Shown here piece by piece: positions 6,340 to 64,000 of a DNA stretch of 64,000 nt (the stretch's first letter is position 1; the number at the start of each line of letters is the position of its first letter). Both the position numbers and the translations under genes were made by a program. Source of the DNA: an uncultured Peptococcaceae bacterium (GTDB lineage Bacteria; Bacillota; Dehalobacteriia; UBA7702); NCBI GenBank assembly GCA_964637365.1, contig CAZWWH010000001.1, forward strand, positions 132,269 through 196,268. Direction: 5' to 3'. Under the pieces are notes generated by a model. It saw only the letters and a program-made list of their open reading frames with translations. It was not told the DNA's origin and did not search any database.

Positions 6340-6355
6340 TGCAAGGAGCGTGCCA
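6340..6355 (-). promoter_or_regulatory. sigma-54 (-24/-12) promoter driving the mttB-paralog/BCCT/hydantoinase operon
   Basis: minus strand reads TGGCAC-GCTCC-TTGCA, an exact match to TGGCAC-N5-TTGCW, about 80 nt upstream of the start at 6261; divergent from the sigma-54 activator gene. Confidence 0.8.
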
Positions 6356-6550: not shown

Positions 6551-6594
6551 AAACAATGTAAATTTTTTGCTTACGAAATTTGGGAGCGGAAACT

Positions 6595-8082
6595 ATGGAA
6601 TTAAAAATCACCAAAAAAATTTTGTTTGAGATCATTGAACACCTCAAAGAAGCCGTCTATATCGTAGACGCCCAAGGGAAGGTTGTCTATTTAAACGATG
6701 CAGCTTCCGAGCTGGAACAGATGCCGAAAAAGGATTTTCTGGGGAAAACCATTGCCGATGTTTACTTTAACACAGAATTTCATTCTCACAAAAACTCCCC
6801 TTGTCTCGACGTCTTAGCCAGCGGTGAAGTACAGGAAAACGAAAACCTGGAATGGTACACCGCCGACGGTACCACCATTAATGCCATCACCAATACCTTT
6901 CCCATCATGGAAAACGGTGAGATATTAGGGGTATTTTCCATGGCGGAAAATATCGCGGACCTGAAAAAGCGCCTCATTGAAATAGGAGCCTTTCCCCGAA
7001 AGCAAACCTACCGCATGAAAAAGAAAACCCTCCATAACGGCACCTCTTACATTTTTGATGACATCATCGGCGAAAGTGACGCCCTGCAAAGCACCATCAC
7101 CATTGCCCGGCGGTTTGCCGCCAAAAAGCTGCCGGTCATGATATACGGTGAAACAGGAACCGGGAAAGAGATGTTCGCCCAAAGCATTCACAACGCCAGC
7201 TCCTCGGTGGCAGGCCACTTCATCCCCGTGAACTGCGCCGCCATCCCAGAGAATCTGCTGGAAAGTATCCTCTTCGGCACTGTCAAAGGAGCCTTTACCG
7301 GGGCCATTGACAGTGTGGGGCTTTTAGAGAAAGCGGAAAACGGCTCTGTTTTCTTAGATGAAATCAACTCCATGCCCATTGGCCTGCAAGCAAAAATCCT
7401 TCGAGCGTTACAGGAAAAGGAGGTACAGCGCATTGGCGACAGCAAAACGAGAAAGATCAACTGCCGAATTATCAGCGCCACCAACAAGCTGCCTGCGGAA
7501 GCCATTCGTGACGGAGAAATGCGGGAGGACTTATTCTACCGGTTATCAACTGGGATGATTCTCATCCCACCACTGCGGGAGCGGGGCAATGATTTTGAAC
7601 TCCTGGCAGACTATTTCATCGCAAAGTGTAACGAGGAAATTGACGCCACCGTGACGGCTATGTCGCCGGAGCTGAAAAATCTTTTAAAGACATACTATTT
7701 CCCCGGTAATATCAGAGAGCTTGCCAATATCATTGAAAGTGCCATGAATATGACCATTGAAGGAGAAAATATCCTGGACCTGCGGCATCTTCCCACCTAT
7801 CTGAAAAACCATTTCAAAGAGGAAATTTCCGCCATGCCCAATGCGGAGCAGGTCTTTCAAAGGCATAGTCCCCAAAGCCACAAAAATGTCCCTCAAATGG
7901 ACTTCCATGGCAATCTCAATACCATGATGGCAGAATACGAGAAGGGCCTGATTGAACTCGCTTTGGCCAGCACTCAAGGAAATCTCACCAAATGCGGGGA
8001 AAAGCTGGGGATCACCCGTCAGAATCTCACCTTTAAGATGAAACGGCACAATATTGATTTAAAAAAATTCAAACGCAGATAG
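6595..8082 (+). CDS. sigma-54-dependent transcriptional activator (PAS sensor - AAA+ - HTH)
   Basis: GETGTGKEMFAQSIHNAS Walker A, GAFTGA motif (GAFTGAIDSVG), ESILFG, C-terminal Fis-type HTH, N-terminal PAS-like domain; ATG at 6595 has a GGAG RBS (the ORF track starts at an upstream TTG, 6580). Confidence 0.85.
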   Translation: MELKITKKILFEIIEHLKEAVYIVDAQGKVVYLNDAASELEQMPKKDFLGKTIADVYFNTEFHSHKNSPCLDVLASGEVQENENLEWYTADGTTINAITNTFPIMENGEILGVFSMAENIADLKKRLIEIGAFPRKQTYRMKKKTLHNGTSYIFDDIIGESDALQSTITIARRFAAKKLPVMIYGETGTGKEMFAQSIHNASSSVAGHFIPVNCAAIPENLLESILFGTVKGAFTGAIDSVGLLEKAENGSVFLDEINSMPIGLQAKILRALQEKEVQRIGDSKTRKINCRIISATNKLPAEAIRDGEMREDLFYRLSTGMILIPPLRERGNDFELLADYFIAKCNEEIDATVTAMSPELKNLLKTYYFPGNIRELANIIESAMNMTIEGENILDLRHLPTYLKNHFKEEISAMPNAEQVFQRHSPQSHKNVPQMDFHGNLNTMMAEYEKGLIELALASTQGNLTKCGEKLGITRQNLTFKMKRHNIDLKKFKRR

Positions 8083-8151: not shown

Positions 8152-9612
8152 TTATTTTACGCGGTCTTCTGCCCGGGCCAAAATCGCATCAAGGCGGGCC
8201 ACTACTTCCTCGGGCAAAGCAGGTACCTGGTGCTCAGCCAAAAGGCGTTTTGTTTTTTCGTGAACGCGAGTACGCATATCCGTAGGATTGTTGATCCAAG
8301 ATTGGTAGCGGCTGCGATCCATCAAAGTAGGCTGCCACAGCTCCTTCTTAAAGTTCATGAAAGTATGCTCGTTGGTGAGGAATTCACCGCCGGGGCCGAC
8401 GGCTTTGATAACGTCATAAGCCAAGGTATCATCAGAAATTTCGATACCTCTAGTGATGCGACGGGCATAGCCGATGATTTCATCACACATGACGATCTGA
8501 TCCAAGGAGGCGGACATAGCGCCATCAATAAAGCCCACGTCATGAACGAGATGGCCACCGCTCAAGGCGTTGGACAAGATTTGCATGGACGATTCAATGG
8601 CAGCTTGTTCATCCACTACCTTAGCTTCGGTGACACCGCCGGTTTGGAACATCGGTAAATTGAGATAATGGAAAATATCAGCAATGGCGCTTTCCCCCAG
8701 GCAATGCTCAGGGCTGCCATAGGCCGACTGGGTGGTAGCCATATCCACAGCTAGAATCACAACACCCCCCACAAATACGCTGCCTCTTTTTAACAGCTGG
8801 GACAAAACAAGGCCAATGAAAACCTCAGCCAACCCCATGGCTAAGCCTGCGGCAATGGTTACAGGAGAAGTCGAGCCCAGTTGGGGGCCGGTGGGCCAAA
8901 TGATAGGCAAACCGGCTTCAATGCCACACTCTAATTTATCAAAATTACTGGTATCAATGACTAAAGGCGTTACAGGGCAGCCGGGGAAAATGGCAACAAA
9001 GGGCTTTTCACGCAATTTATCCATACCGCCGGCGACTTCAGCACACATTTCAATTTCATCTTGGAAGCTTTCCACTGTGGTACCCCAAGCCACAAAGGGT
9101 TTTGTGGTATTTTCCAAAATTTCGCGTACTTCTACAACGTCAGCAACATCGGGGTGGCAATCGGAAATTCCAGCGAGGCCCATAATAAAGTCGATGTTGG
9201 GGCAGGCATCGGAAATCCGGGCGTTATTGGCCACGTCTTTACGGAGACCTTCGCGGCGTTCCCCGGTTTCAAAATCGTTGTACATGGGATTAGTGGGGCC
9301 ATTGCCGTAGTAGTTGTTAATACCGCCGGCACGAATGACTTCATTGCCCATGCGGTCGTAAAGCACCATTTCCGAAGGAGCCGAAGCAATGCATTCCTTT
9401 ACAAGGCTGGCAGGGACTTTGACGATGTTATCCTCCGCCGCACAGCCAGCTTTAACCAAAAGCTCAATGGCTCTGGGATTTTTAATCATCATCCCGGTAT
9501 CCTCCATGATATGGAGAGCGGCTTCAATAATTTTTTCACATTCGGCTTCGGTCAAAGCCTGATAGCGAGATTTGTTAACGTGGTAGTAAGATTGAATACC
9601 TTTGATCGACAT
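8152..9612 (-). CDS. MttB-superfamily methyltransferase without pyrrolysine (second paralog)
   Basis: 486 aa, about 50% identical to 4798-6261; the Pyl-equivalent position is Val (…MFQTGGV-TEAKVVDEQ…). Confidence 0.85.
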   Translation of the reverse strand: MSIKGIQSYYHVNKSRYQALTEAECEKIIEAALHIMEDTGMMIKNPRAIELLVKAGCAAEDNIVKVPASLVKECIASAPSEMVLYDRMGNEVIRAGGINNYYGNGPTNPMYNDFETGERREGLRKDVANNARISDACPNIDFIMGLAGISDCHPDVADVVEVREILENTTKPFVAWGTTVESFQDEIEMCAEVAGGMDKLREKPFVAIFPGCPVTPLVIDTSNFDKLECGIEAGLPIIWPTGPQLGSTSPVTIAAGLAMGLAEVFIGLVLSQLLKRGSVFVGGVVILAVDMATTQSAYGSPEHCLGESAIADIFHYLNLPMFQTGGVTEAKVVDEQAAIESSMQILSNALSGGHLVHDVGFIDGAMSASLDQIVMCDEIIGYARRITRGIEISDDTLAYDVIKAVGPGGEFLTNEHTFMNFKKELWQPTLMDRSRYQSWINNPTDMRTRVHEKTKRLLAEHQVPALPEEVVARLDAILARAEDRVK

Positions 9613-9676: not shown

Positions 9677-9692
9677 CGCAAAACCCGTGCCA
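9677..9692 (-). promoter_or_regulatory. sigma-54 (-24/-12) promoter of the second mttB paralog
   Basis: minus strand TGGCAC-GGGTT-TTGCG, about 65 nt upstream of the start at 9612. Confidence 0.75.
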
Positions 9693-9759: not shown

Positions 9760-9910
9760 ATTCTATAGGCGTCATGTAAATATTTATTGCCGCAATAAAT
9801 ATTTCATCTATAAAAAATCGCAATAAAAATTGCTACTTCGGCACAAACTATTTTTGACAATTTTCATTGCCTATTCAGGAAAAACGACATTTTTATTGCG
9901 CAATATTTCT
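9760..9910. promoter_or_regulatory. candidate activator-binding palindromes
   Basis: TTTATTGCcGCAATAAA (perfect 8+8 palindrome), AATCGCAATAAAAATTGCTA and ATTGCGCAAT; same TTGC-N-GCAA theme as at 6480-6550. Confidence 0.45.
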
Positions 9911-9987
9911 TGCGGTATGCTTTTTGCATATATCATATTAACAAAGAGGCACAAAGCATAAACCAAACCGAGAAAGGAGGAAACTCA

Positions 9988-11466
9988 TTGAGAAAAGTAA
10001 TGAATGAATCGCTGCTGCTGGATATCATTGAGCATTTTCATGCCGCAGTCTACATTGTGGATAAAGACGGAAATATGGAATACCTAAACAGTGCAGCCAA
10101 ACGCATGGACCGCCTTACCGATAATGTCATTGGCAAAAACTTATCGGAAATTTATTACAATACAGTTTTCCAGGAAGGCATGAACTCCCCCTGCTTAGAC
10201 ACCCTCAAAACAGGAAATGCCCACATTTACGAAAATTTAGAGTGGTATCTCAAAGACGGTACTACGGTCAACGCCATTACCAGCACTTATCCCATTATCA
10301 AGGAGGGAGAAATCCAGGGTGTATTTGCCCTGTCCGAAGATGTCAATCAATTAAAAAAGTTCCTGATAAAAAATGGTGCTTTCAAACAGAAATTGTCCTA
10401 CCGTTTCCGCAATAAGACCATGAAAAACGGTACTCAATATGTGTTCAACGATATCATTGGGGAAAGCGAATTGATGAAAAATACCATTATGATGGCTCGG
10501 CGGTTTGCCGCCAAAAAGCTGCCGGTAATGATATACGGCGAAACCGGTACCGGTAAAGAAATGTTCGCACAGAGCATCCATAATGCCAGCCCCTATGTGG
10601 CCGGGCCTTTTATTCCCATCAACTGCGCGGCCATTCCCGAAAACCTGCTGGAAAGTATGCTTTTCGGCACTGTCAAAGGAGCCTTTACCGGCGCCCTGGA
10701 CCATGCTGGACTTTTTGAAAAGGCCGAGGGCGGTTCCGTGTTTCTCGACGAAATCAACTCCATGCCCATGTTGCTCCAAGCAAAGATCCTCAGGGTTCTC
10801 CAAGAAAAGGAAGTGCAGCGCATTGGCGATAGTAAAACACGAAAAATCAACTGCCGCATCATTAGCGCTACCAATCAATTACCCACTGAAGCCATCCGCT
10901 CTAACAGCCTGCGTGAGGATTTATTTTACCGTTTATCCACCGGCATGGTCTGGATTCCTTCCTTGAAAGAACGCAGCGAAGATATCTCCCTTTTGGTAGA
11001 TTATTTTATGGAAAAGGCCAATGCGGAATTGGATACCACCATCCTCTCCATTTCACCAGAGCTGGACCATTTGTTCCATGCCTATGACTGGCCGGGTAAT
11101 ATCAGGGAACTGTCCAATGCCATAGAAAGCGCCATGAACATGACGCTGGATGGGGAAACCGTACTGGACCTGCGACATCTACCCACTTACTTAAAGCGGC
11201 ACTTTAGCACGGAATTGATGGGAATGCCCAATGCAGAGGAGGTCTTCTCCGTACGAAACGAGTCCATGGACAACCCTGCGCCCATGCTCCACCTTCATGG
11301 CAATATCAATGAAATGGTAGACGCTTACGAAAAAGAGCTGATTCAATTCGCTTTACGCGCTACTAGGGGCAACCTTTCCAAGGCTGGGGAAAAACTGGGA
11401 ATCTCTCGCCAAAGCCTTTCTGTAAAACTGAAAAAGCATTGCATTGATGCAAAAACTTTTAAATAA
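9988..11466 (+). CDS. sigma-54-dependent transcriptional activator (PAS - AAA+ - HTH), paralog of 6595-8082
   Basis: the same motif set (GETGTGKEMFAQSIHNAS, GAFTGA) and about 65% identity to the first activator; likely TTG start at 9988 (GGAGG 7 nt upstream) or ATG at 10000. Confidence 0.85.
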   Translation: MRKVMNESLLLDIIEHFHAAVYIVDKDGNMEYLNSAAKRMDRLTDNVIGKNLSEIYYNTVFQEGMNSPCLDTLKTGNAHIYENLEWYLKDGTTVNAITSTYPIIKEGEIQGVFALSEDVNQLKKFLIKNGAFKQKLSYRFRNKTMKNGTQYVFNDIIGESELMKNTIMMARRFAAKKLPVMIYGETGTGKEMFAQSIHNASPYVAGPFIPINCAAIPENLLESMLFGTVKGAFTGALDHAGLFEKAEGGSVFLDEINSMPMLLQAKILRVLQEKEVQRIGDSKTRKINCRIISATNQLPTEAIRSNSLREDLFYRLSTGMVWIPSLKERSEDISLLVDYFMEKANAELDTTILSISPELDHLFHAYDWPGNIRELSNAIESAMNMTLDGETVLDLRHLPTYLKRHFSTELMGMPNAEEVFSVRNESMDNPAPMLHLHGNINEMVDAYEKELIQFALRATRGNLSKAGEKLGISRQSLSVKLKKHCIDAKTFK

Positions 11467-14815: not shown

Positions 14816-15515
14816 TATGACGCTTTTGCTCCCCCCCTTCTGAGGCGAAAGAGCCCATTTTATTTTAGGACAACATCATCTTTTTGCCGCCCGCAGGAGA
14901 ATTTGTTCATTCCAAGTGATAGATTCACTTGCGGGTGGCTCTCTTTTATGCCTGTTCAAAACGGTTCATGGAAAAAATAAAGTGCGGCGGAACATTATGT
15001 CCGCCGCAAAAGCAATCGATATAAAAATTAAAATATAAGGAGAATTTAGAATCCATATCATAAGTGCACAAATCGCACGAATTTAAGAAAGAAGGGGCAA
15101 ATGCGTAACTTAGGCGAGATAGGCGATTGCCCAACAAAGAAAAAAATAAGGAGTTTGTGTTAAGATTGGCAACTAAATAAAAAAGCCTTGCTTCCGAAGA
15201 ACCAAGGCGATTTTGAGAAATTAAAAATCGCAAACTTCTTACGCGGAAGTTTCCAAATCATCAATGAGGTTTCAGTATCCTGACTTACCTTCAACGTCTT
15301 CCTGCGCCTTCCCGGTTTCCCAGTGGCAAAATGCAGTAGACTCAGAGCTTACAGTGGCGCGACCGTCCGGGATTTAAACCCGATTCCTTCATACCTCAAT
15401 GTAATGTGCTATTCACTTTTGTTGAAGTAATCATAACACATCGAATTGGAAAAATCAAGTACTTTTTTTAAAATCTTGGCATTCCGGTGATTCCAATTTG
15501 TTATCACCAAAACCC

Positions 15516-19395: not shown

Positions 19396-21374
19396 TCACC
19401 GAAGCTGATATTTTTTTATCTTTTTATATAATGTAGATTTTCCCATATTCAGCATTTTCGCCGCCTGGGCCACGTCATGATCCGTAGCCGTCAGGGCTTT
19501 TTGAATGGTTTCTATTTCCGCATCCCGGATTGGGTCTGGGGAAATTAGAGATTTAGACGGCGCGATTGACGTAGAGAATACGTCATCGGGAAAATTTCCG
19601 GGAACGATCCATTCGCCATTACCGGTAGTTACCGCATAGACAACGGCCTTTTGCAGTTGGCGCACATTACCGGGCCAATCACCATGAAGCAAAATGCTTT
19701 TCGCCTCAGAACTCAGTCGGGGTACCTGCCACTGCATTTTGCCGCAGTACTCCTGAATAAAGTGCTCTGCCAATAAAACGACGTCGTCATCGCGTTCCTT
19801 CAATGGTGGAATGACAATTTTCAATGCAGAAAGACGGTAATATAAATCTTCACGGAACAGGCGTTTCCGCACAAGCTCTTGTAAATCCTGATTGGTGGCG
19901 GCGACGAGACGGAATTCCACGTCAATGTACTTATCGCCGCCAATTCGCATCACCTGATGATTTTCTAAAACCCGTAGCAGCACCGCCTGCACCTCATAAG
20001 GCATGTCCCCAATTTCATCTAAAAACAAGGTGCCCCCTGGGCCAGCTCAATTTTTCCGGGGCGGCCCTTCCGCTCGGCACCGGTAAAGCTGCCGCCCTCA
20101 TATCCCAACAGCTCACTTTCCACCAAATTTCGAGGCATGGAGGCGCAGTTTAACGCGATAAAAGGGCCGTGGGGCCGTGAGGCGTTGTGGATCGCCTGGG
20201 CAAAAATTTCTTTGCCAGTACCGCTTTCCCCTAAAATCAATACATTTTCAAAGGAGGAGGCAAAGCGCATAGAGATATCCTTAGCTTTCACAATGGAGGA
20301 ACTTTCTCCGAGAATATCCTGGAACGTCAGAGTCGCAGTATTATGATTTCTTTGGGCAATGTAGCTGTCAATTTGTTTCGGGTCACTGATACGGATTACC
20401 ATACTGTCGGAAACATCGGCCTGCTCCCCCATAATGGGTCTTAGGCTGAACAGGTAGTTTTTATCTCCCTCCGGCAGAAGCAGTGTATCCTCTAAATTAT
20501 TAACGTTGGCTTGAAGCGACAGCATATGCTTTAACGGCGAATTCTCTCGAAGAAATTCACAAAGGTTGTACTGACGTTCCGAATCCTCCTTGATGCCAAG
20601 GATATTAATGCTTTTTCGATTAGCTTTCAAAATTTTCCCGTGATTCTCCGCCAAAACAATACCTTCATCCATAAAAGTAAGGGTGGCCTCCAGCATTTGA
20701 TTGGTCTTGCGGAGCTCCTCGTTCCGCTTTTTGATTTCCATTTGCTGACCTATGGACAAGGCCATGGAGGACGTCCAGCAAAGAGCATTGATTTGATCCC
20801 GATGATATTCCGTGGTCCAGTATTCCTCCGGCATTAATCGGGCCAAGGCAATGATCCCGACACTCTGCCCCTTTCCATCGAGAATCGGCGCTGCCGACAT
20901 TGTGGTCGGCTGCATGGTATCGTGAAAATTCTCCGGGCCGTTGGTTTGCACGGGACAGCCGTAGCGGAGAGCCAGCATGGTTGCGGTAGTTCCCAGATAC
21001 TCATCTTTCGAGGAAGATGCGATATACTCCGCACCGGAGTCCGTCACAGGGAATCCCTTATTGGCAATGATAGTGAAGTAGGATTTATCCTCCGGGCTGT
21101 TAAAGAAGCAAAGCAAATTCAAATCCCGATCAAATAAAATCACAATAAGGTGGGAAATGGCAAAAAGCTCCATAATTTCATCGGTAATCATTGCCTTTGT
21201 AGTCTCTATCAGCAATTTATTTTTTTGAAAAAGATAATTATTCTGTTCCACACTGGGATCTGGCGGAAAAAGATCCTGATATGGGTGGATGCCATAGGTA
21301 AAGGAGCGCTCCCATGACAGGGCTATTTCCTCCCGAATCAGGGGATTCCCCGAGGGACGAATTCCTTTTTCCAC
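19396..21374 (-). pseudogene. sigma-54-dependent activator (GAF-PAS-AAA+-HTH, AcoR-like) disrupted by a -1 frameshift
   Basis: ORFs 20019-21374 and 19396-20028 are the N- and C-halves of one activator; the break is at a C5/G5 homopolymer (20033-20037). Restoring one G gives …GKIELAQGGTLFLDEIGDMP…, the canonical activator sequence. Confidence 0.75.
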
Positions 21375-22139: not shown

Positions 22140-24314
22140 TTATTTCCGCCTTTTGAAAACAAATGCAAAAACAAGCCCTAATGCAAGAAACAATACGCTT
22201 ACAATCATTACGATCCAATCGGTTGCAGGTACAGTATTCTGACCTTGCGATTGGGTTTGACCGTTACTGTTTGGTTGCGCATTGCCGTCAGGTCGTTGCA
22301 TCTGACCGCCGAAATCCCCATTTTCACCGTCAGGCAGTTCAGGCGGTGCGCCACCTTGCATTTGTTCGCCTCCGAAGCCGCCTTGGTTTCCGTTCGGCAT
22401 TTGACCATCAGGCATCTGAGAAATTGAACTATCTTCTGAGCTGCCATTTTCTGTAGCATCCGATTCTCCCGAAGGTGTTTTGTCGGTTGATTCTGTGGTT
22501 TCATTATCCTCAGCATCAGTCTGCGGTTTTTGAGTATTACCATCAAACTTATCTTTGCCGCCGCCCATAGTATTGCCCATAGAACCCATATCATTGATTT
22601 GAATATCACCGGCATCTATAAGGGTATCACTCTTTTGGGTATCAGAGGTAGAGCCAATTGTTCCGTCAAGTTGAGCACTCACGCTTTCTGCACGAAGCAA
22701 ACAGAACTCTTTAAGAGTCGTAATGCCTTTTTCAAATTCTTCATAAGTGCAGAACTTTGTAGGATCCTTTTCAACATATGGAGAAATCATTGCATTGACG
22801 TTATCTATCATCTCTGAGAAATAACCGCTATCGAAATAGGTCACAATAAATTCCGAGAAATACTTATGGTACAGTTCGGTATATTCTTCATTCTCGAAGA
22901 TCCAAGCAATCATCGGTCTATCTTCGGTGTTGCCGCCGGATACAGGAGAGTCAACCGGATAGTTGACAAGGTTGGTAGCACCGCCCGCAGACTCGAATCC
23001 GCCGAAAGCAAGGTTATAGTCCCACGGAACCATTTGCATCTGACCGTCTTTTTCGTAGAGATAATAGTTATGGATCATCGATCCGGTATAGCTGTCAAAA
23101 TTCAAAACAAAGTTATGCACCACGAAATAACGGATTACTTTTTCGATATCAACAGTATCTTCAAGCTCTTCGCCGTTACTCAGTTTTTTGAGAGCTGCGA
23201 TCAAACGTGCTTTATCGCTGTCGGAAACATCAGTTTTCGCATTGTCAAAGATGTTGGCATAGCTTTCGATCTCATCGTCAATGTATTTGAGCAATACATC
23301 GTCGCTGCCATTGGTCATACCGCCTTTATCTCCGCCTTGCATATCTCCACCGGGTATCTGTCCGCCCATTTCGGGAACGGTACCGCCTTGTTGCATCTGT
23401 CCGTTTGTATCTGATGTCGAACCGTCTGTAGTTGTTTCGTTATTAGGAGGTGTCATTCCGCCTTGTGCGTTACCTGCATTGGGCTCTACCGCTGTTTCTC
23501 CGCTCGGTAACTCAGGAGGTGTTGTGCCGCCCTGTGACTGACCACCTTGCATATTTTCGCCTGGCATCTGCGGAGTGGTTTGATCGGTATTACTGCTTGT
23601 TGTATCTTGCGTGGTAGTCGAGGTGTCGGCATCCTCGGTGTTGCCGAGGAAGTCATCCATATCGAACTTCTCGCCGTTGCCTCGTCCACCTCCCATACTT
23701 TGACTGTCGGGCTTATAGAGTTCACCATAATTGTTTCCGTAATTACGTTGCAGGAAAGATTTTTCTACACCTTCTACCGCAATGTAAAGCCCCCAATCTT
23801 CACCGTTTACCGTAATATAAACATAACTGCAAAGCGGTGAAGAAACGCCCATTTCAGCCATCATCTGATAGGCCAGATAATCCTTCATATAGGTGTTGTC
23901 CTGAATGATATTGTTTAGGCACAGCTTATCCAGACCGTAGTAGGTGTTGGTACTGTCGTAATGGTCAAACTCGATTTTGAAGCTGTAACGGTCGTTTCCG
24001 TAGGATGCCACCTGTGTCAGCGAAGTGTTGCCTTTTCCACGAATCGCCACATTTTTATACGCTTCATTATCAATGACAACAGAACAGGCATAGTATTCTT
24101 CGCTTTTGCAGTTTGCCGTAAATTCTTCCCAATCCTCCATAATAATATCAATGGTGTGGACAGCAGAGGTATCAAACAGCTTATTTTCATAGCCCATTAC
24201 GGTAGAAGCCTTTTGAACACCGAAACTTTCGGCATTCATAAACAATACGGTAAGAAGCAACGTAACAGCAAGAACAACACAGCAAATTTTATCAAAATGC
24301 TTATGTGTTGACAT
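22140..24314 (-). CDS. CotH kinase-family protein, membrane-anchored at both ends, with a long Gly/Gln/Met/Pro-rich low-complexity segment
   Basis: 724 aa; CotH-like core (…YGELYKPD…, …YYLYEKDGQMQMVPWDYNLAFGGF…); N-terminal signal anchor and C-terminal TM (WIVMIVSVLFLALGLVFAFVFKRRK). Confidence 0.65.
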   Translation of the reverse strand: MSTHKHFDKICCVVLAVTLLLTVLFMNAESFGVQKASTVMGYENKLFDTSAVHTIDIIMEDWEEFTANCKSEEYYACSVVIDNEAYKNVAIRGKGNTSLTQVASYGNDRYSFKIEFDHYDSTNTYYGLDKLCLNNIIQDNTYMKDYLAYQMMAEMGVSSPLCSYVYITVNGEDWGLYIAVEGVEKSFLQRNYGNNYGELYKPDSQSMGGGRGNGEKFDMDDFLGNTEDADTSTTTQDTTSSNTDQTTPQMPGENMQGGQSQGGTTPPELPSGETAVEPNAGNAQGGMTPPNNETTTDGSTSDTNGQMQQGGTVPEMGGQIPGGDMQGGDKGGMTNGSDDVLLKYIDDEIESYANIFDNAKTDVSDSDKARLIAALKKLSNGEELEDTVDIEKVIRYFVVHNFVLNFDSYTGSMIHNYYLYEKDGQMQMVPWDYNLAFGGFESAGGATNLVNYPVDSPVSGGNTEDRPMIAWIFENEEYTELYHKYFSEFIVTYFDSGYFSEMIDNVNAMISPYVEKDPTKFCTYEEFEKGITTLKEFCLLRAESVSAQLDGTIGSTSDTQKSDTLIDAGDIQINDMGSMGNTMGGGKDKFDGNTQKPQTDAEDNETTESTDKTPSGESDATENGSSEDSSISQMPDGQMPNGNQGGFGGEQMQGGAPPELPDGENGDFGGQMQRPDGNAQPNSNGQTQSQGQNTVPATDWIVMIVSVLFLALGLVFAFVFKRRK

Positions 24315-27805: not shown

Positions 27806-28189
27806 TTAGTTGTAAATTATATCGTAATTTACGATTTCTGTGGCTCTGCTGCGGATGTTATTCATCCGAGAAACCCATTCCATTTGACTGTCAGCTTTGA
27901 GTTGTTCGGTCACGCCCTCACGCTCTGCCATCTGTTCTACGAGCCGAAAAAACATATCCTCAGTCTGCTTGTTTACATCGGCAAGGTGCCTGTTCAGTTC
28001 ACATTGTGTGAGTAAGGTTGTATAAAACCCTTTGCGGTGCACCTTGATATACTGCAAGTGCCGCTGTCCCCAAATACCGATAGGCTGTTTTTCTTCATTG
28101 GGGAGTGCAAGGTCGGGCAAGTAGTAATCTCCGTGCAGAGTGTAGCTAATGCTCGTCTGTTCGTTATAAATGTGCTTCTCCATCATCAC
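27806..28189 (-). CDS. TnpV-like small protein (transposon-associated, Tn4451-family accessory protein)
   Basis: 127 aa; the …ISYTLHGDYYLPDL…PIGIWGQRHL…QMEWV… pattern resembles, from memory, TnpV proteins carried on Firmicute conjugative/mobilisable elements; not verified by search. Confidence 0.45.
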   Translation of the reverse strand: MMMEKHIYNEQTSISYTLHGDYYLPDLALPNEEKQPIGIWGQRHLQYIKVHRKGFYTTLLTQCELNRHLADVNKQTEDMFFRLVEQMAEREGVTEQLKADSQMEWVSRMNNIRSRATEIVNYDIIYN

Positions 28190-28371
28190 GCCTCCTTGTA
28201 GATCACTTTGAATTTCTTTTGCTTTCTATCAATGATTTTCAGTAAAACCTCATCCACCGCATCGGTGTACTTGCCGTTGGCAATAAGCTTATTCCGCATT
28301 TCATTCAGGCATTTTATAACTACCCGCCGTTCAAAATCATCAAGTGCTATGTAATATTTCTTATCCCGCAT
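28186..28371 (-). CDS. hypothetical 61-aa basic protein
   Basis: AAGGAG RBS 9 nt before its ATG; translationally coupled (ATGA overlap) to the TnpV-like gene. Confidence 0.45.
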   Translation of the reverse strand: MRDKKYYIALDDFERRVVIKCLNEMRNKLIANGKYTDAVDEVLLKIIDRKQKKFKVIYKEA

Positions 28372-28376
28372 ATCAT

Positions 28377-28676
28377 TTACTCCTTTAACAAATCTTGAAA
28401 CGGTGTGTCGGTGACTACGAAGGTATCGTATGTGAAGTTGGCTCCCAAGCGAAACCACATCATATAACTGTCAAGATTGGATTCGCCGTTTACCACGCTC
28501 CACGCATTAACGAAATCGAGAAACTTTTTCTTATTTTCAACCGATAGCCGTTCTGTTAGGAAATCTTCATTGAGCATCAAGACCTTCATTTGCTTTTGCA
28601 CCGCTTTGTTCTGCTTTGTGCTTCGTTCCTGTGGATCAATGTTGCCGTAATAAAATTCTTCTATAAATTTACCCAT
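28377..28676 (-). CDS. hypothetical 99-aa protein (first gene of the same-strand array)
   Basis: ORF with Firmicute codon usage; no recognisable motif. Confidence 0.45.
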   Translation of the reverse strand: MGKFIEEFYYGNIDPQERSTKQNKAVQKQMKVLMLNEDFLTERLSVENKKKFLDFVNAWSVVNGESNLDSYMMWFRLGANFTYDTFVVTDTPFQDLLKE

Positions 28677-28757
28677 ATTGTTACCTCCTTTGATTTTCTA
28701 TCATCATTTTACTCAAAGGCAGTTTGATAGTCGAATGTATGGATATAAAAGCATAAA

Positions 28758-28798
28758 AAGACAGAGAGAAAGGCGATTAAGCCTTTCTCTCTGTCTTT
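28758..28798 (-). terminator. strong hairpin/terminator separating spoIIID from the downstream array
   Basis: 18-bp near-perfect stem AAAGACAGAGAGAAAGGC/GCCTTTCTCTCTGTCTTT, U-run on the minus strand. Confidence 0.6.
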
Positions 28799-28954
28799 CC
28801 CTTTTGCAACGCCCATAAGTTAGTGTTTTGAAATTACTGCCTTATGTGGCGTGTGCAAATGTGCTTTCTCTTTTTTGTTTATCCACGTCACACGACATAA
28901 AACAATCCCATAGGGGCAATTCTTGCACCGTCGATTCATTGGGACACAAAGAGA

Positions 28955-28982
28955 GCCACCACATTTCAAAATGTGGCGGCTT
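28955..28982 (-). terminator. hairpin immediately after the spoIIID stop
   Basis: GCCACCACAT-ttcaaa-ATGTGGCGGC (one mismatch). Confidence 0.45.
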
Positions 28983-28990
28983 CATTGAAA

Positions 28991-29272
28991 CTATGGCTTT
29001 CGTTGAATCTTTACCTTGGCCTGATGCTCTGCAGCATATTTTTTTCGCGTGGCTTCGCCGCCTCGAAGGTGACGTTCGGCCTTGTTGATTTCTAATATCT
29101 GGCGCACTTTTTGTGCCGTTGCTTCATTAATCATCGGCAATCGCTCCGTCATATCCTTATGTACCGTTGACTTACTCACACCAAAAATGGCAGCGGTCTG
29201 ACGTACTGTGGCCGAGGATTCCATGATATAGCTGCTGATCTCCAGGACCCGTTTTTCAATATAATCCTGCAT
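28991..29272 (-). CDS. spoIIID: stage III sporulation transcriptional regulator SpoIIID
   Basis: 93 aa; …FGVSKSTVHKDMTERLP…RHLRGGEAT… is near-identical in the HTH core to Bacillus SpoIIID. Confidence 0.9.
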   Translation of the reverse strand: MQDYIEKRVLEISSYIMESSATVRQTAAIFGVSKSTVHKDMTERLPMINEATAQKVRQILEINKAERHLRGGEATRKKYAAEHQAKVKIQRKP

Positions 29273-47005: not shown

Positions 47006-48445
47006 TCAGTTCTCCTTTTTCCAACGGGGACCGTTGGGAGTATCTTCAATGATGATGCCGATTTTTTTCAGTTCATCACGGATAAAGTCCGCTGTGGGCC
47101 AATCCTTCTGACTCCGGGCTCTGGTACGGATTTCCATGAGAATGTTTAAGAGGTCATTGCTCATGTCGTCCCCTTCTTCCTCCTGGGGTACGATAACGTT
47201 CATCACTTCGTTGATTTCTCCGAAAAAGGCCAAAACTTCTTTGATGGTGGACAAAGTCTTTTCACCACCGCTGAATCCTTGAACGTTAATGATGCCATTG
47301 ACGTCACGGCAGAGGTCAAATACCGAGGCCAAGGCAAGGGAGGTGTTGAAGTCATCATCCATGGCGGCGATAAATTTTTCTCTCGTTTCGTTGACGATGG
47401 CAGTCAAGCGGTCCGCAACGTCACTATCCGAAGCAGGGTTCTTTTCCAACAAGGCCGCCTTTTCTTCGGCAATACGGTAGGTGTTCCAAATGCGGTGGAG
47501 AGATTTCTCGGCCGCTGTCAGCTTCTGGTCATCGAAGTCCAGAGGGCTTCTGTAATGGGTAGACATCAGATAAAACCGCACCACAGGGCCGGGAAATTTA
47601 TCGAGGATATCCCGAAGGAGGAAGAAATTTCCCAGAGATTTAGACATTTTTTCCGAATTGATGGTAATAAATCCGTTATGAATCCAGTAATGTACCGACT
47701 CACAGCCGTTGCAGCCTTCGCTTTGGGCGATTTCATTTTCATGATGGGGGAAAATTAGGTCGGCGCCGCCGCCGTGAATATCGAAGGTTTTGCCCAAATA
47801 TTTGGTAGACATGGCGGAGCATTCAATATGCCAACCGGGGCGGCCTTTGCCCCAGGGGCTGTCCCAAGCGGGTTCACCTGGTTTGGCAGCTTTCCACAAA
47901 GCGAAATCCAAAGGATCCCGCTTCTGTTCGCCCACGGCAATCCTGGCACCGGACTGCATTTCATCCAAAGAGCGACCGGAAAGCTTGCCGTAGGGTTCAA
48001 ATTTTCGCACTTCGTAATAAACGTCGCCGTTGACCTCGTAGGCCAATCCATTGTCGATGATGGTCTGAACCATGTCGATAATTTCCTGCATATGCTCGGT
48101 GACACGAGGATGCACATCAGCCCGTTTCACCCCCAGACGGTCAGCGTCTTCAAAGTAAGCATCGATATATTTTTCCGCCAGCTTTTTGGGGTCCATGTTT
48201 TCTTCATTGGCCCGATTGATGATTTTATCGTCCACATCAGTGAAGTTTTGAACATAGGTCACATCATAACCGCGGTAGGCGAAATAACGGCGGATGACGT
48301 CAAAAGCCACGATGGGGCGGGCGTTGCCTAAATGGATGTAGTTATAGGTCGTAGGGCCGCAGACATACATTTTGACCTTTCCCTCTTCCACTGGGACAAA
48401 TTCTTCTTTGGTGTTGCGCAGTGTGTTATAAATTTTAATGGACAT
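47006..48445 (-). CDS. cysS: cysteine--tRNA ligase
   Basis: HLGNARP (HIGH) and KMSKSLGN motifs, 479 aa. Confidence 0.95.
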
Positions 48446-49082
48446 CTTTTTTCTCCTTTAACAGATTTTCCAGATATTCAACTTTTTCAGTCAATTCATT
48501 GATTTTTTCAAATACAGGATCGTTGAATCTGCCGTCTTCCACTTCCTCCCCTTCGTTGACGCGGCAGCCATCTTTCACTACAATGCGTCCGGGGACCCCC
48601 ACCACGGTACAGTTATCTGGTACGTCGTTCAGCACCACGGAGCCTGCGCCGATTTTCACATTATTACCAATGGTAATGGAACCCAGTACAATGGCGTTGG
48701 AGCTCACAACAACGTTGTGGCCGATGGTGGGGTGGCGCTTGCCATGCTCTTTTCCGGTACCCCCAAGAACCACGCCTTTATAAAGGGTCACATTTTCCCC
48801 GATCTCCGTAGTCTCCCCAATGACAATCCCCATGCCGTGGTCGATGAAAAATCCCTCGGAAATCTTGGCGCCGGGATGGATTTCCACCCCTGTCATAAAA
48901 CGGTTGATATGAGCGATCCAGCGGGCCATGACAGTCCAATGATGACGAAAAAACCAATGGGCCAGACGGTGTCCCCAAATGGCGTGAAGGCCGGGAGAAC
49001 AGAGAAAAACCTCCCACGCCGAGGTAGCGGCGGGGTCACGATCCATGACTGCTTTGATATCTCGTTTGGCACGGTCAAACAT
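48435..49082 (-). CDS. cysE: serine O-acetyltransferase
   Basis: SATase N-terminal helical domain plus hexapeptide repeats (…[24 protein letters not shown]…); start at MFDRAKRD, with a GGAGG RBS. Confidence 0.85.
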
Positions 49083-49099
49083 CTCAAATCCTCCTGTTT

Positions 49100-49370
49100 T
49101 GACTCCTGAATCTTTTACCAAAACAAAAAAACCGCACCCAATCCAGAGACAGGGTTCGGCTGTGGTTCCACTCTGATTTACGGCGAAAAGCCGCATCTCA
49201 ATTCCTTTAACGCAGGTCATACGTCGTCGCCTAAAGAAAAAAATCCCTCAGCGCCGCGGCTCCCAAGTGCACTTCAGAAAAGTTATTGCCGAGACCGCTT
49301 TCAGCCGGTGACGGTCTCTCTCTGCTGCCAGCCCTTTTCTTACTCTCTTGTTCAAAGCCTTTGCATTTGT
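49100..49370 (-). ncRNA. probable T-box riboswitch leader (Cys-specific) of the cysE-cysS operon
   Basis: leader contains AGAGAG (stem I base), a UGCA candidate specifier, a T-box-like AAUCAGAGUGGAACCACAG (consensus AAnnnGGGUGGnACCGCG), then the terminator CCGAACCC…GGGUGCGG + U7 directly before the cysE RBS. Confidence 0.5.
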
Positions 49371-52009: not shown

Positions 52010-52455
52010 AATCCACACTCCTTTGAGAGTTCCATAATTTATTTATTTGTTTATTATAATATAAACTGAGTGACCTTATTAATCATAATCAAAACGAATC
52101 AATCGTCTGCTGGAAAATAACAATTCATCATGCTTACAGTTGTCATTTTTTCTATTTTTTACAATCATTTGGGGTAGATTTTTTACCGTGCTTTCTTACT
52201 CGCCACAAAAACGTACTCTTACTTAAAAAAATTAGCAATGTTTCAATGAGGTACAAAATAACAAACGCTCCCGGGAATACTGACTGACAATTGTATGAAT
52301 GTAAGAATTTTATGTTCTCGAAAAATCACCACAAAATAGAATACAAACCTGGCGTTTTATAAACAAATCATTAAAACCATTACAAATTTCTATTCTTGAA
52401 ATCTTCTTTCAATCACTTAAAATGGAACTATAAGATTCAGGAAAGGAGATTTGCG

Positions 52456-53061
52456 ATGAACGGTTACGACGCTATTTACGATCAACTATTGCCTCGCTTA
52501 AAACAATGCGATTTGGAAAAACACGCGAAAAATTTGGGTCTCGTGTACGAAGACAGCCGAGTGAAGGTGGATTTTATGGGAGAAGAATTCACAGTAACCA
52601 ATGAGGGAGTCACCCCTTATGAGGAGGATGGCAATGCCATATCGGTTCCCATTACTCTCGTTTATTATATACTTTCCGAAGGTATTGGCGAGGCCTCGGA
52701 TCATTTTGTCGCCAGACACAATCTTTCCAATGCGATGGCGGGAATGTTCAATAAGCCCAGACTCACCGAGCCAGTACTAATCGCCGCCAAAGGACGTTAC
52801 GATATCTTTGCCCAAGCTGCTGAAAAACTAGGAGGAAAATATATGGGGGAAAGAAAAGGTGGTCATTTCTGGGTCTTTGCTCCCCTACCGAAGACTCCCA
52901 TCGGCTTCAATTTTATCGAAGCCGACGATGAACTCCCGGCAGAACTGCTGATTACTGTATCTGCCAATGCCACGGATTTTCTGGAATATGAATGCTTAGA
53001 CAGCTTGGAGGGCATTGTCATCGACCGCATTAAAAAAGAAGCAGCCCGCTTAACGAAATAG
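52456..53061 (+). CDS. hypothetical protein (~200 aa)
   Basis: AGGAGA RBS; no recognised motif; preceded by a ~430-nt AT-rich untranslated region. Confidence 0.5.
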   Translation: MNGYDAIYDQLLPRLKQCDLEKHAKNLGLVYEDSRVKVDFMGEEFTVTNEGVTPYEEDGNAISVPITLVYYILSEGIGEASDHFVARHNLSNAMAGMFNKPRLTEPVLIAAKGRYDIFAQAAEKLGGKYMGERKGGHFWVFAPLPKTPIGFNFIEADDELPAELLITVSANATDFLEYECLDSLEGIVIDRIKKEAARLTK

Positions 53062-61648: not shown

Positions 61649-62593
61649 TTATTCTATCAATTCTTTCTCCGTCTGAACAGCATTCTTTGTGTTCCTAAAT
61701 GCTGCGTAAAGCATGGTAGCAGAAGTGTAGAACAAGATGACAACGATGAGCCAGAACAATACATTAATCGGCATGGACTGGAAGATAAAGTATGCCAGCA
61801 ATACACCGACAACGCCACCAATATTACCAAAGGCATTTGCTCTGTAGTCGAGGGCTTCGTTTTTCAGGAAGGTAAGACCACTGGCCAGCATCAAGAAGGT
61901 ATAGGAACCGAACATGATGGGGAATGCGCATCTGGGATCCATACCAAAACCGTAACAAATGGCAATCATGAAGGCATAACCGCCAACACCACCGGCAGCA
62001 AGAATACCAACAAAGAAGAAAAGGATCGTTGCGATAACGAGCTGCACACCATAAATACCAATTTCCATACCGCCAACTGCCCAGAGGCCAAGGTTACGGA
62101 GAATCATGGTAACGGTAACAACAGCAAGGCCAAAACCGATAATAAAACGGATGGGTCTGAGCGGTAAATGGGAAACATATTTTGCACCTAATTTTGTACC
62201 GATGGTAACGGCAGCGATCAGGCAAATCAAGGTAAGGGGATCCACGGTAACGGTGGATACGAACAACATGGTTTCGGTTGCGGAACCTAATAAAGACGCA
62301 GTATTCAACGTACCGGGAATCAGTCGTTCGTCCGTAGCTTTTGTCAGCTTCAAAAGAGCGGTATGAGGAGCATTACCACCGATACCAAGGGTATCACCAA
62401 ACATGATGAAAGCAACAATAAAGAAGTGAATAAGAGAAAGCAGTTTTGTTTTACCGCGGCTTTGATAGTAAGGATTCTGAAGCATCAAACCGGGGTTTTT
62501 AAGCAGCTTGCGGTAAAATACAATAATCCAAGTAATCGCATTGACAGCGGCGCCAATGACTACTAATTTAACCAATAATGCACCAATATCCAT
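61649..62593 (-). CDS. polytopic membrane protein immediately downstream of mttB; candidate methylamine permease
   Basis: 314 aa, about 8-9 TM, Gly-rich helices; position directly 3' of mttB parallels the mttB-mttP (permease) arrangement in methanogens. Assignment is by context only. Confidence 0.4.
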   Translation of the reverse strand: MDIGALLVKLVVIGAAVNAITWIIVFYRKLLKNPGLMLQNPYYQSRGKTKLLSLIHFFIVAFIMFGDTLGIGGNAPHTALLKLTKATDERLIPGTLNTASLLGSATETMLFVSTVTVDPLTLICLIAAVTIGTKLGAKYVSHLPLRPIRFIIGFGLAVVTVTMILRNLGLWAVGGMEIGIYGVQLVIATILFFFVGILAAGGVGGYAFMIAICYGFGMDPRCAFPIMFGSYTFLMLASGLTFLKNEALDYRANAFGNIGGVVGVLLAYFIFQSMPINVLFWLIVVILFYTSATMLYAAFRNTKNAVQTEKELIE

Positions 62594-62621: not shown

Positions 62622-64000
62622 TTATTCCTTGATACCGTATTCTTCGGCGGCTTCGGAGATAATATCACGCATGCCAGCTTCTACGCCGTCAGCAAGAGGA
62701 GCGACTTTATGGTTTTCCATGATGTATTTTGCGCGTTCATAAGCACGTTCAGCCAAGTCGGTTTTGCCTTCCATTTCCCAAGTTTCACGCATGGTGCGGC
62801 AGAAGAGGCTGCTGGTGCTTTGTTCTTTTCTGAAGCGTTCAAAGGTATGAGGATGGCTGACCAATTCGCCGCCAGGCCCGATCTCCTTGATCAGATCAAC
62901 GGCGAGATTTTCGTCAGTTACTTTGATACCTTCAATGACTTTGCGGATCATGGTATAGATTTCGTTATCAATGACGAACTGAGCATAGTCGAAAGTGATA
63001 CCGAGGTCTAACATCCCGGCCCCATAAATGATGTTGGCGCCGCCCTGGGCTGCCAAAAGGGCTGTCAATGTTTTTTCATGAGCTGCTTGAGCATCGGGGA
63101 GTTTGCTGTCTGCCTAACCACCGGCTACGAAGCTGGGGAGATTATAGAACTGAGCCAGACGTGCAACGGAAGCACTGATCATGCCCAATTCAGGAGCACC
63201 AACAGGAGCGGTAGTATAACGCATATCCATGATGGTGGTGGAGCTAGCATAGATGCAGGCCGCGCCTTTTTGGGTCAACTGAGAAAGAACGATAACGCTC
63301 AAAACTTCAGCATTGTGGGTAACGAGAGTACCGGCCAAAGTTACAGGAGAAGTAGCACCAGCCATAGCCATGGAAATGATGTTAATGGGAACACCTTCTT
63401 TGGCAGCAAGAATTACGACGTCAGTGCATTCAGGAATCAATTTCAACAAACTGGTGGGGCATACATTGAAAGTGACCAAAGGTCTTTTGCGAAGGTTTTC
63501 TCTGCCGCCAGCAACGAGGGAAGCCATACGAATGATTTTCTTAGCATTTTCAGCGCCATCGGGACCGATGAAAACGTGTTTGGTGGTATTGGGGAAAATC
63601 GCTTCCGCATTGTGGAGTGCTTGAAGAGGACCAGGGATGTCCTGAGAAGCAACGGCACGGTAAGTGATATCCATATTGGAAAGGTAGTCGCTCATGATGG
63701 AACATTTTACCAAGTCAGCTTTGGTGCTGGGACGATATTCTTTGGTTTCGATATCGCGAACAACAACGCCTTCACCGAAGTTAACAAAACCAACTCTATT
63801 TTTTTCTACCACATAGTCCTTTTGAGGATCTCTTGCAGCCAAGAGAACAGTGGGGGGAGCGGTACGGATGGCATCTTCCACCACATAGGGAGGGATGCGG
63901 ACGATATTGGTTTCAGGATCTACTACAGCGCCGCCAGCGGCAAAAATTTCTCTGGCTTCTGCGCTATCTACTCGTACCCCGACATTTTGCAGGAGATCGA
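62622..64000 (-). CDS. mttB: trimethylamine:corrinoid methyltransferase MttB with in-frame UAG (pyrrolysine) codon at 63114-63116; 5' end lies beyond the window
   Basis: ORFs 63114-63884 and 62622-63068 are in the same frame and joined through a single TAG: …LAQFYNLPSFVAGG-[UAG]-ADSKLPDAQAAHEKTLTALLAAQGGANIIYGAGMLD…. Both flanks align with the uninterrupted paralogs at 4798-6261 and 8152-9612, and the upstream frame continues to the window edge with MttB-like sequence. Confidence 0.85.

Follow-up and report, generated by a model that had tools for sequence, protein, structure and literature searches.

Does the in-frame TAG codon in a trimethylamine methyltransferase gene (mttB) of an uncultured Peptococcaceae bacterium end the protein, or is it read as pyrrolysine (Pyl), the 22nd amino acid? 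The gene lies at the end of a stretch of 64,000 nucleotides (nt) of contig CAZWWH010000001.1 (assembly GCA_964637365.1, positions 132,269 to 196,268 of the forward strand), the whole of which we call the window. By combining gene structure, comparison with solved structures and protein families, conservation among relatives and gene-neighborhoods we find that mttB is very probably intact and functional, with UAG codon 328 decoded as pyrrolysine. As judged from the sequence, the codon falls on the Pyl site defined by the structure, the 163 codons beyond it are conserved and selected as protein, and the gene is assigned to the Pyl-MttB equivalog and not to the neighboring non-Pyl betaine-type paralogs.

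The in-frame TAG codon and its place in the protein

The gene is encoded on the minus strand and extends from 62622 past the end of the window at 64000, with a lone internal TAG at 63116-63114 (the plus strand reads 'cta' at 63114-63116, the minus-strand codon being TAG). Translation of 63998-62622 on the minus strand yields one continuous MttB frame with a single '*' and a terminal TAA at 62624-62622. This bears out an earlier reading of the DNA from its letters and open reading frames (ORFs), here called the sequence-only reading, according to which the ORF track splits one gene in two: a 256-amino-acid (aa) ORF (63114-63884) that stops at the TAG, and a 148-aa ORF (62622-63068) that opens in the same frame at a TTG, the 16th codon past the TAG. 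That both pieces are MttB-superfamily sequence, as it held, is confirmed by Pfam MTTB matches to each. The 5' end, which it placed outside the window, is indeed found there on contig L001, a Logan assembly of SRR16188865 that we recovered through the neighboring TauE-like protein (61649-62593), which is identical on other public contigs. This contig overlaps the end of the window with 1 synonymous difference in 1.4 kb and places the mttB ATG 97 nt (32 codons and one base) beyond it, preceded by AAGGAGG. Read from L001 (8497-9975), the full gene comprises 327 codons, the TAG, 163 further codons and a TAA, giving a stitched protein of 491 aa; the start of the 256-aa ORF is a mechanical GTG, and the true N-terminal piece is 327 aa long. 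The features of the gene are as follows:

62622 to 64000, minus strand: mttB, predicted pyrrolysine-type trimethylamine:corrinoid methyltransferase, of which the window holds codons 34-491 and the TAA (from the frame, the 7XCL/7XCM match at E = 1e-106 and TIGR02369)
63114 to 63116, minus strand: UAG in the mttB frame, predicted to encode pyrrolysine as residue 328 of the full protein (from the 7XCL alignment; conserved in assemblies and relatives)
63069 to 63113, minus strand: 15 codons from the TAG to the TTG of the mechanical 148-aa ORF, ADSKLPDAQAAHEKT (conserved at the protein level; Methanosarcina barkeri has SDAKVPDDQAGHEKT)
63774 to 63776, minus strand: codon of Gly108, equivalent by alignment to Gly110 of M. 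barkeri MttB
63369 to 63371, minus strand: codon of Met243, equivalent by alignment to Met249 of M. barkeri MttB
63024 to 63026, minus strand: codon of Tyr358, downstream of the TAG, equivalent by alignment to Tyr364 of M. barkeri MttB

The same TAG is seen in three independent assemblies, namely the window, the Logan assembly of SRR16188865 and a 3.2-kb contig of the NCBI metagenome-assembled genome (MAG) GCA_036306385.1 ('Bacillota bacterium'). An assembly error behind the TAG was named beforehand in the sequence-only reading as an outcome that would overturn it, and a genuine homopolymer frameshift does occur elsewhere in the window. However, because three independent assemblies carry the same TAG, it is not such an error; its presence in every Pyl-type ortholog examined also refutes this idea, to which we give practically no credence.

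A phmmer search against all PDB sequences placed M. barkeri MttB (7XCL, 7XCM) first (E = 1e-106; 448 aligned residues, 44% identical), followed by the glycine betaine enzyme MtgB at only E = 4e-60. In this comparison with Methanosarcina MttB, which the sequence-only reading had proposed, the alignment covers residues 35-484 of 491 and the TAG falls residue for residue on X = Pyl334 of 7XCL ('AGSXSDAKVP' in 7XCL, 'AGGXADSKLP' in the window). The stitched protein scores 688.9 bits with the NCBIfam equivalog model TIGR02369 ('trimeth_pyl'), against a curated cutoff of 525 bits, while three TAG-less paralogs of the same organism stay below it (323.5, 358.9 and 368.7 bits). The exact match to Pyl334 and the passing score together sustain the proposal that the TAG sits at the catalytic pyrrolysine site of authentic MttB. 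The score alone is no proof of Pyl, because a homolog from Candidatus Formimonas warabiya with Val at this position also exceeds the cutoff (588.6 bits).

This Val-type protein is encoded in Formimonas-like loci (L010, 5866-7347; L023, 12880-14367), is 47% identical to the window protein and retains the equivalent of Tyr364. It is a close non-Pyl sister of Pyl-MttB, which annotation pipelines would mislabel.

The non-Pyl methyltransferases, including Desulfitobacterium hafniense MtgB (2QNE, 9YCE) and the window paralogs, share PF06253 and the same fold family with the window protein and differ in having an ordinary residue at the Pyl column. The earlier alignment drew on the two full-length paralogs of the window (4798-6261 and 8152-9612, both minus strand and both PF06253, MTTB), and the claim that such paralogs carry an ordinary residue there holds. 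In a MAFFT alignment the second has Val, as claimed, and the first has Ala, the 'C' given for it being one residue off.

Structural work on M. barkeri MttB reported that Gly110 and Tyr364 are invariant (100%) among Pyl-MttBs and matter for Pyl activation: the Gly110 carbonyl holds a water bound to the Pyl imine, and Tyr364 is the proposed proton shuttle, with Y364F losing most activity; Met249 is an active-site residue that moves upon MttC binding (PMC9842639). Equivalents of all three are kept in the window protein as Gly108, Tyr358 and Met243. The TAG-less paralogs differ at the Tyr358 column, which holds His in those of the window and Gly in a 470-aa paralog on L001.

Conservation beyond the TAG codon

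A scan of one genome per species recovered 16 related loci. In 13 orthologs (45-84% identical in the N-terminal piece) the TAG stands at the same aligned codon and the frame is open to a normal stop about 163 codons on; five more gene copies behave in the same way, giving a total of 18 copies in the relatives' loci with the TAG and a kept frame. Two loci carry frameshifts, the TAG still being seen in one (L019) and the other (L013) being unreadable through the site, and the sole locus without the TAG among the 16 encodes a 29%-identical non-Pyl homolog. In comparisons of the window gene with 11 orthologs, the ratio of nonsynonymous to synonymous substitution rates (dN/dS) after the TAG is 0.09-0.19 for the seven with measurable dS, and in the remaining four synonymous sites are saturated, with a proportion of nonsynonymous differences (pN) of 0.16-0.34. 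The part upstream of the TAG gives 0.08-0.10 in three measurable comparisons. By these values the sequence downstream of the TAG is judged to be under purifying selection and to be translated.

With the N-terminal piece as query, a search of a 5.8-billion-protein collection (E <= 1e-120) returned 70 N-terminal fragment clusters, 69 of which are 327-332 aa long; a 259-aa partial and a 371-aa entry fall outside this range. These lengths fit gene callers halting at the same codon. Truncation at the TAG in annotation has also been described for mttB of gut bacteria, in MAGICdb, which lists seven bacterial genera (PMC10653893), and in Bilophila (PMC7593587).

The stretch of 15 codons that separates the TAG from the TTG of the 148-aa ORF is kept at the protein level in all orthologs and in M. 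barkeri, with differences mostly at third codon positions on inspection of the DNA alignment; it is part of the protein and no spacer. This bears on the idea of a split enzyme, in which the 327-aa piece and the 148-aa piece, started at the internal TTG, would be assembled without read-through. The TTG does follow 16 codons past the TAG and gene callers do report two ORFs. However, no Shine-Dalgarno sequence precedes this TTG, unlike the AAGGAGG before the true ATG, the called start of the second piece varies among relatives (130, 135, 146 or 148 aa), and a split would delete the catalytic residue itself. Given the protein-level conservation of the stretch from TAG to TTG and the lack of a ribosome-binding site before the TTG, we rule out a two-piece enzyme, the chance of which we put close to nil.

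The region immediately 3' of the TAG also matches an RNA model:

63017 to 63116, minus strand: hit of the Rfam model RF02510 PYLIS_3 ('pyrrolysine insertion sequence mttB') at 88.5 bits (gathering score 38)

We considered an RNA insertion element 3' of the UAG and rejected it. In the window gene four of about eight model pairs are non-canonical, and the 100-nt region has a minimum free energy z-score of +1.13 and is no more stably folded than shuffled sequence. Folding 14 orthologs together gives a consensus of only -3.99 kcal/mol with compensatory change in just 2 of 12 predicted pairs, and the model also scores 64 bits on the Val-type mttB of Formimonas, which lacks the TAG. Because pairing, folding, covariation and the TAG-less match all speak against such an element, we regard the match as a sequence signature of the Pyl-type mttB coding sequence, with the structure unsupported. 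Read-through of the UAG would then need no dedicated downstream RNA element, and none is detectable.

Pyrrolysine machinery and the meaning of UAG

If the UAG is decoded as proposed, a tRNA-Pyl(CUA) charged by PylS would read it in competition with release factor 1, and the Pyl would be made by PylBCD encoded elsewhere in the genome. Several observations weigh against this interpretation. No pylT is present in the window, on L001 or on L020-L022: ARAGORN finds no tRNA there, and a covariance model trained on four pylT sequences from relatives (consensus pylT sequence GGGGGGTGGATCGGCAGGATCGCATGGACTCTAAATCCATGTAGCCGGGTGTAACTCCCGGACTCCCCGCCA) has no match. Likewise, tblastn searches with PylB, PylC, PylD, PylSc and PylSn from relatives returned no match in the window and its flanks, the latter covering 8.6 kb past the 3' end (L001) and about 7 kb past the 5' end (L020). 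The loci of PylD and MtbB homologs retrieved from the protein collection (PylD of Formimonas as query, homologs P0002, P0004, P0005, P0009, P0056 and P0104; MtbB of RUG11176 as query, homologs P0168 and P0170) all come from samples other than those holding this organism, which are SRR16188865, SRR10165008, SRR32687604, ERZ27271638 and GCA_036306385.1. In Formimonas-like loci pylD (with pylT in L010) lies between the gene for formate-tetrahydrofolate ligase (FTHFS) and that for the sigma-54 activator, where this organism has a non-Pyl MttB paralog. The 8.6 kb upstream of mttB hold no gene for a corrinoid protein (the cognate MttC), and on this side the suggestion that corrinoid partners lie just outside the window fails; a gene for a B12-binding protein is found about 7 kb outside the other end, among non-Pyl paralogs. 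Finally, the residue next to Gly108 is Glu in place of Thr111 of M. barkeri MttB.

The relatives offer indirect support for Pyl decoding, by analogy. The MAG AnMBR.bin323 carries an 83% ortholog on one contig (L004) and pylT, pylB, pylC, pylSn and mtbB(TAG) on another (L019). In Ca. Formimonas warabiya the genes run FTHFS, pylD, pylT, sigma-54 activator, mttB(Val), mtbB(TAG), mtbC, mttB(TAG) in L010, and pylB adjoins a second mttB(TAG) in L011. For Formimonas, seven Pyl-containing MttB-superfamily proteins are reported (PMC9768040).

A 96-nt 'tRNA-Stop (tta)' called by ARAGORN at the place of the Formimonas pylT in another locus (L009, 262-357) was set aside as probably a long hairpin and not a tRNA, its Rfam match being weak and hairpin-like and the pylT model giving no match.

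The chief alternative to Pyl decoding is that the TAG is a real stop, the Pyl machinery having been recently lost or never present, and that the gene is a fresh pseudogene or yields a 327-aa product. This reading draws on the lack of pyl genes in about 80 kb from this organism, on the missing pylD and pylT at the position they hold in Formimonas-like loci, and on the continued use of TAG as a stop: among 54 window ORFs counted, 7 end in it (in one case via a frameshift), and read-through would add only 4-54 residues to these. Nevertheless, the 163 downstream codons are intact, include the catalytic Tyr358 and show purifying selection throughout the clade; samples of different studies carry an identical gene except for one synonymous change; the closest MAG with linked data, AnMBR.bin323, has both the ortholog and pyl genes; and bacterial pyl genes often lie apart from mttB, as in Bilophila (PMC7593587). 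Recent loss of the machinery is unlikely because of the selection data, and we consider a true stop an improbable explanation overall.

Alternatively, decoding might be conditional: UAG would mean Pyl only under induction of the pyl genes, by trimethylamine for instance, and stop at other times, such that both products would exist, depending on the growth conditions. For Acetohalobium arabaticum, expression of the pyl genes is described as substrate-dependent. Next to every MttB paralog lies a sigma-54 activator with a PAS sensor domain, which points to tight substrate control, and TAG remains a common stop in the window ORFs. Such conditionality, for which we see only a small chance, would refine decoding as pyrrolysine and not oppose it. 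Pyrrolysine at codon 328 of an intact mttB is the reading that we retain. A scan of the window for TAG codons with at least 90 open codons on each side found only mttB and three antisense shadow frames, and no other gene of the window has a plausible internal UAG.

Two further TAG codons of the window may be noted in this context. A DUF3786 protein (52396-53061, plus strand) ends in TAG, with a possible extension of only 10 residues; members of this family often occur close to corrinoid methyltransferase systems. A sigma-54 activator gene (19396-21374, minus strand) is broken near 20019-20036 into two ORFs, of 451 aa and 210 aa, that lie in different frames. The sequence CAGGGGGCACCTTGTTTTTAGATGAAATTGGGGAC at the break would give the Walker-B motif GGTLFLDEIGD with one more G in its G run, and the gene looks to be either a pseudogene or the result of a homopolymer sequencing error. 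The TAG that ends the 451-aa ORF was rejected as a Pyl codon, being a by-product of the frameshift.

Gene-neighborhood, transport and significance

To either side of the window the genomic context could be extended. Contig L001 adds 8.6 kb upstream of mttB with argG and the genes for a CAT-family acetyltransferase, FTHFS, a non-Pyl MTTB protein and a sigma-54 activator. Contig L020 adds about 7 kb at the start of the window with a BCCT gene, a hydantoinase-like gene, two MTTB genes and the gene for the B12-binding protein. The PAS-domain sigma-54 activator gene lies immediately upstream of mttB, just outside the window, as does a perfect sigma-54 promoter (TGGCAC-N5-TTGC; L001, 8419-8433) 78 nt before the ATG. 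Downstream of mttB, within the window, follows the gene through which L001 was found:

61649 to 62593, minus strand: TauE/SafE-family membrane protein of 314 aa (Pfam TauE, 50.4 bits), 28 nt after the mttB stop and with its own GGGAGG site

This protein has no NCBIfam match, and from its position its gene is probably co-transcribed with mttB. The order sigma-54 activator, mttB(TAG), TauE-family permease is conserved in L004-L008, L012 and L044, the last being a 90% relative on a 1.1-Mb contig (JAWDGO010000007.1 of GCA_032941855.1), and most of these loci have a non-Pyl MTTB gene nearby, usually just upstream. The sigma-54 promoter is likewise found upstream of the orthologs in L004-L008 and L012; L044 has no exact TGGCAC-N5-TTGC match within 300 nt upstream of mttB. 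Another TauE gene follows mtbB(TAG)-mtbC in two relatives (L039, 12136-13056; L041, 12140-13072). Because a TauE homolog also accompanies this second pair, a role in methylamine transport is a reasonable guess, and the TauE-family protein may be viewed as a candidate methylamine permease.

The paralogs of the window show a comparable arrangement. Each has a divergent PAS-domain sigma-54 activator (6580-8082 and 9910-11466, plus strand), and perfect TGGCAC-N5-TTGC promoters occur at 6341-6355 and 9678-9692 on the minus strand (two matches, with 0.16 expected). This suggests one dedicated sensor per methyltransferase. Behind the first paralog (4798-6261) come the genes for a BCCT transporter (3151-4695) and for a hydantoinase/oxoprolinase-like protein (1028-3118), and outside the window start L020 repeats this pattern with two more MTTB genes, the BCCT gene and a second hydantoinase-like gene.

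The window gene invites comparison with three sets of Pyl-type mttB genes. It differs from that of M. barkeri (7XCL, 7XCM, 7XCN) in being bacterial, in lacking an adjacent mttC corrinoid gene or pyl cluster, in its predicted sigma-54 dependence and in the TauE-family permease gene that follows it. Ca. Formimonas warabiya DCMF (L010, L011) shares with it an N-terminal piece that is 71-72% identical, the same TAG codon and the motif FVAGG-O-ADSK, as well as a genome rich in MttB paralogs under sigma-54 activators; however, the Formimonas copies adjoin pylD and pylT, mtbB(TAG) and mtbC, or pylB and a corrinoid gene, whereas the window gene has none of these and a TauE gene instead. The third set comprises Pyl-mttB genes of uncultured Bacillota from gut, rumen and digesters (L004-L008, L012, L017, L044), which are 79-90% identical and have the same module of activator, mttB(TAG) and TauE. 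The window represents another species: the best match reaches 84% in the genome collection, and that in the protein collection 90%.

Several other features of the window and its flank were recorded. On L001 a ZMP/ZTP riboswitch (48 bits; 2062-2139) precedes the FTHFS gene. A match to the cobalamin riboswitch at 15275-15387 (minus strand, 74 bits) is incomplete, taking in just positions 47-167 of the 189 in the model; on the minus strand it is followed by no credible ORF, only by a 95-aa low-complexity one and then a convergent hexapeptide transferase gene, and the match may be an orphan or a remnant. A T-box leader (49142-49364, minus strand, 96.7 bits) before a serine acetyltransferase-like gene and the cysteinyl-tRNA synthetase gene (48435-49220 and 47006-48445, both minus strand) is an ordinary Bacillota arrangement. 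The transposon-encoded TnpV is found in 27806-29272 (minus strand), followed by several small ORFs, and 28991-29272 resembles SpoIIID by eye. The SpoIIID-like ORF together with CotH (22140-24314) points to a spore-forming Bacillota host, with a possible mobile-element remnant.

In terms of function, transcription would start from the sigma-54 promoter (in full TGGCAC-N5-TTGCA), driven by the PAS-domain activator encoded immediately upstream, and the operon would run on into the TauE-family permease, whose role may be substrate import. Pyl328 is predicted to bind and activate trimethylamine together with Gly108 and Tyr358, and the methyl group would be handed to the Co(I) of a corrinoid protein with its gene elsewhere, then probably going on into the methyl branch of the Wood-Ljungdahl pathway, for which the FTHFS gene 4.5 kb upstream of mttB is circumstantial.

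These findings leave the current understanding unchanged, as bacterial Pyl-mttB and its truncation by gene callers are well documented (PMC7593587, PMC10653893, PMC9768040). By its sequence the gene is a new species-level member of bacterial Pyl-mttB, and its distinctive points, namely its apparent separation from pyl and corrinoid genes, the predicted sigma-54 control and the TauE partner, are of modest interest. Gene callers split Pyl-mttB everywhere, and NCBI labels the MAG copy 'family protein, partial'; because of this splitting, the trimethylamine-consuming capacity of such bacteria is under-counted. With this gene, the host is likely to use the 22nd amino acid and likely to demethylate trimethylamine anaerobically. 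Relatives come from human gut, rumen and digesters, where the removal of trimethylamine is of medical and methane-cycle interest. As a tentative proposal, which we hold to be doubtful at present, the clade might combine a Pyl-MttB unlinked to pyl and corrinoid genes with a PAS sigma-54 switch and a TauE protein that is a previously unrecognized methylamine transporter. If the transporter and the sigma-54 setting are as proposed, the clade would be a bacterial sink for trimethylamine, with a transport and regulatory logic of its own.

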